Assembly (NCBI GenBank): GCA_964016885.1
Contig: OZ024759.1
Span: forward strand, 3,100,001 to 3,164,000
Direction of reading: 5' to 3'
Length of the DNA stretch: 64,000 nt
Source of the DNA: Eledone cirrhosa
Taxonomy: Eukaryota
In this document: positions 12,001 through 14,153 of the stretch, piece by piece
How the letters are laid out: the number at the start of each line of letters is the position of its first letter
Numbering within the stretch: position 1 is the stretch's first letter
Position numbers and translations under genes: made by a program
The notes under the pieces: model-generated
The model's input: only the letters and a program-made list of their open reading frames with translations
Databases searched by the model: none
Told to the model about the DNA's origin: nothing

Positions 12001-14146
12001 AGATAATTTAATATATCAACTAACATAGGCGCACAGATGTACGTCCATGCCAGCAAATACACAGGTTATGTCATAGTACCTAGGTGGTTCAATGCAGGAG
12101 GGTGCAGAACAATAATATAAAAGACGTAAAATAAGAAAATATTTTTTAAAAAACTTTTTAAAAATTTTTTTACTTACTTACTTAAATTTTCACTCCAACT
12201 AATTAGTTTCTGCAATGGGATAAAGACAGTTACATAATCCAACTGTCGAGAATTCATTGCGTCATCAGGGAGTCTATTCTCAGCTGAGCCTCCAGGCAAT
12301 GCGCGGACACTGGCGGCTCATATAAAAATAATAATTCGGTAGAAAGAATAGCTAGGCGAGGACTGGATTCTATGTACTGAAATTCTCACTGCTTCCAGTC
12401 AAATGGCCGATTCTAAAGAATCAATCACGTGACATAGAGGCTAGTTAGAAGGAATGGGATGGTAAGATGACTGACGCCTACTAACACCCCAAAAAAAATT
12501 TTGAAGTGGTTTTGGCAGGTTTGCTCGACAAATCAGTGATTTGGAGATAAATATAGATAATTTAATATATCAACTAACATAGGCGCACAGATGTACGTCC
12601 ATGCCAGCAAATACACAGGTTATGTCATAGTACCTAGGTGGTTCAATGCAGGAGGGTGCAGAACAATAATATAAAAGACGTAAAATAAGAAAATATTTTT
12701 AAAAAAATTTTTTAAAAATTTTTTTACTTACTTACTTAAATTTTCACTCCAACTAATTAGTTTCTGCAATGGGATAAAGACAGTTACATAATCCAACTGT
12801 CGAGAATTCATTGCGTCATCAGGGAGTCTATTCTCAGCTGAGCCTCCAGGCAATGCGCGGACACTGGCGGCTCATATAAAAATAATAATTCGGTAGAAAG
12901 AATAGCTAGGCGAGGACTGGATTCTATGTACTGAAATTCTCACTGCTTCCAGTCAAATGGCCGATTCTAAAGAATCAATCACGTGACATAGAGGCTAGTT
13001 AGAAAATATTTTCTTATTTTACGTCTTTTATATTATTGTTCTGCACCCTCCTGCATTGAACCACCTAGGTACTATGACATAACCTGTGTATTTGCTGGCA
13101 TGGACGTACATCTGTGCGCCTATGTTAGTTGATATATTAAATTATCTATATTTATCTCCAAATCACTGATTTGTCGAGCAAACCTGCCAAAACCACTTCA
13201 AAATTTTTTTTGGGGTGTTAGTAGGCGTCAGTCATCTTACCATCCCATTCCTTCTAACTAGCCTCTATGTCACGTGATTGATTCTTTAGAATCGGCCATT
13301 TGACTGGAAGCAGTGAGAATTTCAGTACATAGAATCCAGTCCTCGCCTAGCTATTCTTTCTACCGAATTATTATTTTTATATGAGCCGCCAGTGTCCGCG
13401 CATTGCCTGGAGGCTCAGCTGAGAATAGACTCCCTGATGACGCAATGAATTCTCGACAGTTGGATTATGTAACTGTCTTTATCCCATTGCAGAAACTAAT
13501 TAGTTGGAGTGAAAATTTAAGTAAGTAAGTAAAAAAATTTTTAAAAAATTTTTTTAAAAATATTTTCTTATTTTACGTCTTTTATATTATTGTTCTGCAC
13601 CCTCCTGCATTGAACCACCTAGGTACTATGACATAACCTGTGTATTTGCTGGCATGGACGTACATCTGTGCGCCTATGTTAGTTGATATATTAAATTATC
13701 TATATTTATCTCCAAATCACTGATTTGTCGAGCAAACCTGCCAAAACCACTTCAAAATTTTTTTGGGGGTGTTAGTAGGCGTCAGTCATCTTACCATCCC
13801 ATTCCTTCTAACTAGCCTCTATGTCACGTGATTGATTCTTTAGAATCGGCCATTTGACTGGAAGCAGTGAGAATTTCAGTACATAGAATCCAGTCCTCGC
13901 CTAGCTATTCTTTCTACCGAATTATTATTTTTATATGAGCCGCCAGTGTCCGCGCATTGCCTGGAGGCTCAGCTGAGAATAGACTCCCTGATGACGCAAT
14001 GAATTCTCGACAGTTGGATTATGTAACTGTCTTTATCCCATTGCAGAAACTAATTAGTTGGAGTGAAAATTTAAGTAAGTAAGTAAAAAAATTTTTAAAA
14101 AATTAAAAAAAAAAAAATCTTTTTAAAAATATTTTCTTATTTTACG

Positions 14147-14153
<7 letters not shown>
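12001..14153. mobile_element. Retrozyme-like palindromic array, 554-bp unit (about 1.8 units minus, about 2.1 units plus)
   Basis: Unit repeats at 12001 and 12555; inversion at about 13003. HHR at 12192-12273 and 12746-12827 (minus) and at 13429-13510 and 13983-14064 (plus). No ORF. Confidence 0.87.
13429..13510 (+). ncRNA. Type I hammerhead with extended stem II
   Basis: actcc-CTGATGA-c-gcaatg...gacagtt..aactgtc...cattgc-a-GAAA-ctaattag-TT-ggagt. Confidence 0.9.

Follow-up and report, generated by a model that had tools for sequence, protein, structure and literature searches.

A 554-bp tandem hammerhead unit with an extended stem II in Eledone cirrhosa, most likely a Penelope-derived retrozyme

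Non-LTR retrozymes of metazoans are described as tandem non-coding units with circular RNAs of approximately 170-400 nt, for which a Penelope-like mobilisation was proposed (PMC7229834). In the preprint 10.64898/2026.07.22.740005, animal retrozymes are argued to derive from pseudo-LTRs (pLTRs), the family consensus lengths are 51-972 bp, unequal crossover is allowed as a route of local amplification, and only one of nine retrozyme dimers cleaved in vitro (eight did not). Hammerheads of Penelope elements are characterized by a helix I that is short, a palindromic loop 3, G10.1-C11.1 and one additional nucleotide following position 9 (PMC4209133), and the elements themselves by inverted 5'-truncated copies, a one-sided tail and a bias toward (TA)n (PMC8557442). 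When purified, a Penelope-type enzyme cut both strands and extended them, with copying begun at two internal sites of the RNA; with the anole element, insertion did not need cleavage, and none of the RNA reads started at the cut (PMC11167929).

The element class is known and common, and monomer size, TA targeting and inversions are already published. In the literature searched (many subscription papers lie outside it), no retrozyme with a 14-bp two-part stem II, or with a junction at the cut, was found; the supplements of the preprint may list similar units. We analysed a window of 64,000 nt, in which the 554-bp unit described below most likely represents a non-LTR retrozyme that descends from Penelope elements, is non-autonomous and carries a variant ribozyme of predicted cleavage (probability of roughly 0.62).

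Layout of two related tandem insertions

The first insertion (element A, 12001-14153) consists of two arms of a 554-bp unit joined 5'-to-5' inside (TA)n, with approximately 1.8 units in the left arm and 2.1 units in the right arm. The second (element B, 43424-44522) has a 524-bp unit in the same 5'-5' layout. Unit positions of both are numbered from the predicted cut.

12001-13004, minus strand: left arm of element A; RNA-sense 5' end 13004 = unit position 301
11993-12001, minus strand: 3' end of this arm, merging into (TA)n
13003-14153, plus strand: right arm of element A; 5' end = unit position 52
14153, to 14156, plus strand: 3' end of this arm, TACGTCTTTT merging into (TA)n
13003-13004: head-to-head (5'-5') junction of element A, with a 2-nt microhomology AA
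up to approximately 12000: left target tract of element A, a TA-rich run stopping there
14152-14184: right (TA)n target tract of element A
13268-13287, plus strand: 20-nt block with CACGTG, upstream of the ribozyme, identical in A and B
13370-13382: 13-nt TATA-like block, upstream of the ribozyme, identical in A and B
43424-43943, minus strand: left arm of element B, unit positions 165-524, then 1-159/164; motif at 43578-43658
43944-44522, plus strand: right arm of element B, one unit of 524 bp and a further 55 nt, with its motif at 44392-44472

Neighbouring 554-bp copies matched in 448 of 450 and 553 of 569 aligned columns, and identity between the arms of element A was 98-99.7%. The unit is non-coding with a GC content below 50%; its longest stop-free frame is only 47 aa, no ORF was found within or between units, and no intact ORF is common to the units of A and B (70 aa in the latter). 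The initial annotation, which described non-coding tandem units arranged as a palindrome in (TA)n, was therefore correct on this point. Since both outer ends of element A lie within (TA)n, any target-site duplication is hidden. The CACGTG and TATA-like blocks may be internal promoter elements.

The units of A and B aligned over their full length (406 of 568 columns; approximately 72-76% identical), and local BLAST gave 75-79% identity. The designation of the family as "unrelated" thus holds toward the 310/312-bp hammerhead arrays of the window, with which neither unit gave a BLAST match, but not toward element B. These arrays (312 bp, 5711-7289; 310 bp, 15356-20415) also contain hammerheads and lie 5'-to-5' in (TA)n as palindromes; their 3' ends fall preferentially at two places approximately 35 nt apart, resembling the Penelope tail.

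Element A contains two or more units in succession that each bear a complete type I hammerhead (12268/12822 on the minus strand; 13434/13988 on the plus strand), by which the preprint recognizes a retrozyme. As in metazoan non-LTR retrozymes (PMC7229834), the tandem units are non-coding, carry one type I hammerhead each and have a GC content below 50%; further likenesses are the lack of LTR features, Penelope-like elements in the same genome, and a size within 51-972 bp. Given this published range (10.64898/2026.07.22.740005), 554 nt is not exceptional for the "comparatively large monomer" of the initial annotation, although the unit is larger than the circles of 170-400 nt shown by experiment (PMC7229834). 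In contrast to canonical retrozymes (6-bp helix I and 4-bp helix II), stem I is 5 bp and domain II is 51 nt.

Several coding elements are located in the same window. A broken Penelope-like element that has GIY-YIG at its C terminus was found together with several 3' ends, truncated or inverted (37657-40015, 49660-50844, 14184-14837 and 29037-29549); these ends bear a short hammerhead, one of them adjoins element A across (TA)16, and the element (37657-39346) has its own hammerhead, unrelated to that of the 554-bp unit. Three broken Hydra-clade-like Penelope ORFs (1072-2176, 41216-42100 and 44654-46983) have the CxCX5C linker in all three cases (1586-2176, 41216-42100 and 46459-46983) and the RWR motif in one, and no clean hammerhead was found behind them. 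A link of element B to the Hydra-type ORF at 44654-46983 was rejected because (TA)18 and another repeat fragment lie between them, and also because element A is followed by a different element. Other repeats are fragments of non-LTR retrotransposon RTs (60508-62340, 25541-28500 and 36208-37743, all on the minus strand), one of which terminates in C2H2 zinc fingers, a dispersed non-coding repeat with (TA)n flanks, 69-91% alike (2959-3360, 9607-9872, 53860-54165 and 58341-58747), near-perfect fold-back insertions without a detected ribozyme (5289-5478, 7844-8108, 40763-41172 and 54735-54842), and two 234-bp tandem units, 83% alike with TGACC motifs at the start, in which no hammerhead was found (47515-47984).

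Hammerhead motif and paired changes in stem II

The four hammerhead motifs of element A are letter-identical, with CUGAUGA starting at 12268(-), 12822(-), 13434(+) and 13988(+). Their order is stem I, CUGAUGA, domain II, GAAA, the self-complementary ACUAAUUAGU and the site GUU^G.

12192-12273, minus strand: hammerhead motif copy 1, identical to the other copies
12746-12827, minus strand: copy 2, identical to the other copies
13429-13510, plus strand: copy 3, type I hammerhead motif
13983-14064, plus strand: copy 4, identical to the other copies
13429-13433 with 13506-13510, plus strand: stem I of copy 3, 5 bp
13434-13440 and 13492-13495, plus strand: core of copy 3, CUGAUGA and GAAA
13441-13491, plus strand: domain II, 51 nt
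13495-13504, plus strand: self-complementary ACUAAUUAGU, 3-bp stem III in one molecule
between 13505 and 13506, plus strand: predicted cut of copy 3, GUU^G
13421-13426, plus strand: GAGAAU, upstream of stem I; it complements AUUCUC, at 13449-13454 within the internal loop of stem II
13383-13416, plus strand: hairpin upstream of the ribozyme, paired changes 13386:13413 and 13387:13412
13640-13691, plus strand: long hairpin with the two preferred 3' ends on either side; A and B differ here by paired changes

The type I core (CUGANGA, GAAA, three helices and NUH) is complete in all four motifs of A and both of B, and GUU is one of the cleavable NUH sites (PMC3138052). Domain II is built of a C·A mismatch, a 6-bp outer stem, a 7x7 pyrimidine-rich internal loop, an 8-bp inner stem and a 7-nt loop; the mismatch separates the core from stem II in A as well as in B and had been overlooked in the initial annotation.

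The motif shares a helix I of 4-5 bp, the additional nucleotide following position 9, G10.1-C11.1 and a palindromic helix III with the pLTR hammerheads of Penelope elements (PMC4209133), and differs from them in that element A has no attached ORF in the window. Hydra-clade hammerheads also often have a mismatch flanking stem II, with the same C·A in PLE-X1_cBra among the tabulated Hydra and Chlamys ribozymes (PMC8557442 File S2), and U at the cut in many families, (TA)n targets and inverted truncated copies are further common points (PMC8557442). On the other hand, stem II is 14 bp in two parts here, compared with 3-7 bp and loops of 3-10 nt in Hydra; in the table of File S2, a comparably long domain II occurs only in entries marked non-canonical, such as two from spike-moss. 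The HHR_half_core of Naiad elements was rejected as a counterpart: the motif was absent from two octopus Naiad 3' ends, and six exact motifs of the unit were not found in the published Naiad, Chlamys and Hydra consensi, where line breaks can hide matches.

An Rfam search of the unit alone yielded two chance-level matches, neither of which was a hammerhead, and the long domain II is the likely reason why Rfam misses the motif. The whole window gave 393 matches; among the 150 listed, all were microRNA-like (hairpins and TA tracts) or similar. A family-specific motif pattern had no match in metagenome and viral contigs, while a looser core-plus-palindrome pattern, used as a control in metagenomes, had 41; since none of the 41 had a stem I of more than 3 bp, all were ascribed to chance.

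The core, stem I (ACTCC/GGAGT) and the ACTAATTAGT palindrome were identical in A and B, as initially annotated. So too were the claimed double changes verified: two in the outer stem II (GCAATG/CATTGC in A and GTAAGG/CCTTAC in B) and two in the inner stem (GACAGTT/AACTGTC and TATAGTT/AACTATA), giving four pairing-preserving double substitutions with all 14 stem II pairs kept. The eighth inner pair changed from G·U to A-U. Domain II differs by 12 substitutions, nine of them on the 14 pairs, and none breaks a pair. When nine random substitutions were placed on paired positions (300,000 trials per transition share), all 14 pairs were kept in 19, 161 and 1223 of the 300,000 trials at transition shares of 0.33, 0.6 and 0.8, respectively, and together with at least four double changes in 9, 10 and 42. 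As there are only two subfamilies, perhaps separated by one lineage split, these values show constraint rather than four independent events. Stem II folded likewise on its own in A and B (z of -4.6 and -4.7; 0 of 200 shuffles equally stable), and the whole monomers out-folded shuffles (z of -4.0 each; 0 of 100). Modelled as a circle, 60-63% of the bases of the monomer were paired, in branched hairpins rather than a rod. The initial annotation had proposed a retrozyme-like family in which an extended stem II is conserved; this is retained as the best reading, with 14 of 14 pairs kept between A and B.

Between two motifs, ACUAAUUAGU forms a 10-bp helix with a predicted duplex energy of -9.0 kcal/mol, and as a lone hairpin it is unfolded, which points to cleavage as a predicted dimer. 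Dimeric variants of Penelope-associated hammerheads were reportedly the subject of a 2017 study. The dimeric hammerheads of amphibian satellite-2 and axolotl similarly have a weak palindromic helix III, with better cleavage expected as dimers (PMC7229834), but the 10-nt palindrome here is longer, the architecture of helices I and II is different and the (TA)n context is of the invertebrate type. A competing local fold, in which CUGAU pairs with AUUAG, is predicted to be 2.5 kcal/mol more stable than the active fold; this competing fold, the GUU site and the C·A mismatch could make the predicted ribozyme weak.

GAGAA(U) and (A)UUCUC form a predicted pseudoknot of 6 bp in A and 5 bp in B. This remains a prediction because both sides are unchanged between A and B, without covariation; by rough estimate, a 5-bp match such as GAGAA/UUCUC would arise by chance in some 10-25% of cases. 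The stem I-II kind of pseudoknot resembles that of pseudoknot-stabilised hammerheads (PMC3088659), in which, however, the partner is not the internal loop of a long stem II, as predicted here.

Further hammerheads were observed in the window. One family (8218-8290 on the minus strand; 9254-9330 and 59822-59900 on the plus strand) has a 45-nt domain II and palindromic AUAUAUAU, and two copies stop approximately 55 nt past the cut in a pyrimidine tract followed by (TA)n. Another (11274-11345, plus; 49252-49323, minus) has a 36-nt domain II with a stem II of up to 16 bp and the palindrome AUGCGCAU, and ends approximately 55 nt past the cut at (TA)n. A small inverted element (10729-11053) contains a hammerhead-like motif with a 30-nt domain II, and its relative at 33985-34336 lacks part of the core. 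Truncated 3'-end copies at 54386-54631 (minus) and 56133-56378 (plus) carry a short Hydra-style hammerhead with U·U flanking stem II, an AGUACU palindrome and U at the cut.

Copies in sequencing runs and ends of the arms

The unit was partly present in 19 of the 22 listed runs, with half or more of its words in three; 16 rows with small shares, under 0.3, do not enter the results. Four of the 22 were compared by placing reads on one monomer (13250-13803). Matching contigs numbered 1116, 3 and 11 in runs labelled as organisms A, B and C, respectively, and 7283 raw RAD reads were obtained from the run labelled organism A; most were 90-99% alike to the monomer. Related copies were thus found in runs labelled as three organisms. 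Coverage extended over 28 of 30 bins in X1, X5 and X20 and over 26 in X4, the two bins without coverage corresponding to a masked A/T run (masked stretch, 13513-13567). In X20, 1057 reads spanned 13801-13803 back to 13250-13259; these show continuity over an arbitrary boundary, and by themselves not multimers.

Letters of the B-type inner stem occurred in 13-29% of the reads and in one X5 contig. Among the 40 read variants listed, 12 were unpaired, 12 kept the pair alone, 10 did so with a partner and six broke the pair; thus, 22 of the 28 on predicted pairs kept the pair, 10 of them as five partner pairs, and none of the 40 was in the core, stem I or palindrome. Read frequencies of 13387T and 13412A were 0.32 and 0.33, respectively. 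An extra C in the stem I run was found in 154 of 2062 reads. Support from the paired variants is weakened because transitions often keep a G·U pair by chance.

All five read-end peaks among those listed were at AATT sites, as were the listed loose ends with low agreement, and they therefore reflect the library digest; exits of these loose ends into an ORF were ruled out by the same coincidence. Two well-agreeing loose ends among those listed (13304 and 13655) were diverged unit sequence. The share of X1 contigs continuing into unlike sequence was 0, and no coding partner was seen among the loose ends listed (13513-13567 masked).

In both A and B the right end lies on the same homologous TACGTCTTTT, which in B is 55 nt past the cut, even though the units are approximately 28% apart, and the left 3' ends are about 105-120 nt beyond the right ends. 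In unit coordinates, element A has 5' ends at 52 and 301 and 3' ends at about 82 and 204. An inverted 5'-truncated copy, a one-sided end extension and a microsatellite target, the marks of a Penelope-type insertion, were all found in element A, while the extension of 105-120 nt compares with a tail of 30-40 bp in Penelope-like elements (PMC8557442).

The right arm of element B starts precisely at the predicted cut (GGAGTG), at a blunt junction without microhomology. Eight arm ends from four tandem arrays were counted, seven base-exact and the left 312-bp arm only to about 7065; one of the eight starts at the predicted cut (approximately 0.02 expected) and seven miss it. This suggests that, for the right arm of B, the template's 5' end came from self-cleavage, with an uncut second site kept. 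The left arm of B is one full permuted turn (positions 165-524 and 1-164), as from a circle copied once; however, a 22-bp hairpin has its 3' base at position 164, where reverse transcriptase would naturally stop, and a circle need not be assumed. Element A has neither a cut-start arm nor a one-turn arm. Simple twin priming on one linear RNA was rejected: the arms of A are not contiguous in RNA coordinates, and B would need a 109-nt gap.

A possible route is as follows. An internal promoter would give a multimeric RNA of the unit, in which two motifs may pair through the ACUAAUUAGU palindrome, aided by the putative stem II loop pseudoknot. Slow or partial predicted cleavage at GUU^GGAG would leave linear RNAs with uncut sites and perhaps circles. 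A Penelope-type RT-endonuclease, plausibly of the Hydra clade (a guess from ribozyme style and target), would then cut both strands of a (TA)n tract, and two cDNAs would be primed; the two sites preferred for this would lie downstream of the cut by 55-80 nt and 160-200 nt. Joining of the two opposite-strand cDNAs at their 5'-truncated ends would account for the palindrome, both RNA 3' ends facing the TA flanks.

Alternative readings and meaning for Penelope-type elements

It is possible, if doubtful, that the unit is the pLTR of an extant autonomous Penelope-like element, and that the loci are 5'-truncated, tandem or inverted by-products of its transposition. The ribozyme's traits are those of Penelope elements and not of the canonical 6-bp/4-bp retrozyme form, a block that may be a promoter is conserved in A and B, inverted truncated copies are typical of Penelope-like elements, and the unit stops in a U-rich tract 55 nt past the cut, compared with 35-60 nt (computed by hand) in many Hydra consensi. 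However, both arms of A exceed one full unit without a coding insert, and no RT plus GIY-YIG ORF between pseudo-LTRs, by which an autonomous Penelope-like element is recognized, was found in element A. Read coverage around the unit was continuous in the 28 unmasked bins, with the 1057 X20 reads crossing the boundary, and the five listed read-end peaks and low-agreement loose ends are those that the library digest predicts. The 554-bp unit has no sequence in common with the coding elements of the window, and the six exact motifs are missing from the consensi mentioned above, with the same reservation about line breaks. The choice between a retrozyme and a pLTR multimer is less sharp than it appears because the preprint derives retrozymes from pLTRs and because Penelope ribozyme features are present here.

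Quasi-palindrome repair can create paired changes. A DNA-level satellite with an inactive hammerhead relic, whose paired changes came from template-switch repair of DNA hairpins, is nevertheless improbable. The GUU site, C·A mismatch and competing fold that could weaken the ribozyme would suit such a satellite, as would the local amplification by unequal crossover that the preprint permits; against it, the unpaired core is retained, as are the internal loop and G·U pairs, A and B, at separate loci, share one end site in (TA)n, the arrays are short and inverted rather than long head-to-tail runs, and one arm starts at the predicted cut. Misassembly of the palindrome or of the tandem at long TA tracts, to which the 98-99.7% identity of the arms and the long microsatellites on the flanks might point, is very improbable because the arms carry small differences and distinct outer ends, the layout recurs in B and two other families, each with its own ends, and the unit is present in independent runs.

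The retrozyme reading may be extended into a joint proposal, which we regard as unlikely to hold as a whole: a Penelope-associated hammerhead class with domains II of 30-50 nt (three more families in the window) would be missed by short-spacer descriptors, the stem II internal loop would dock upstream of stem I, and 43424-44522 would be a fossil with one arm from a self-cleaved RNA and the other from a circular monomer copied for exactly one turn. PMC8557442 calls it unclear what the hammerhead does in endonuclease-bearing Penelope-like elements, and it was dispensable in one in vitro Penelope-type system (PMC11167929). If the fossil reading is true, it would be in vivo evidence for ribozyme action in Penelope-type transposition. 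Head-to-head insertions would record the 5' ends of copied RNAs, and genome-wide counts of junctions at the cut would thus be a test of cleavage in vivo. Furthermore, the long covarying stem II suggests that searches with short-spacer descriptors (7-17 nt in one screen) undercount animal ribozymes.
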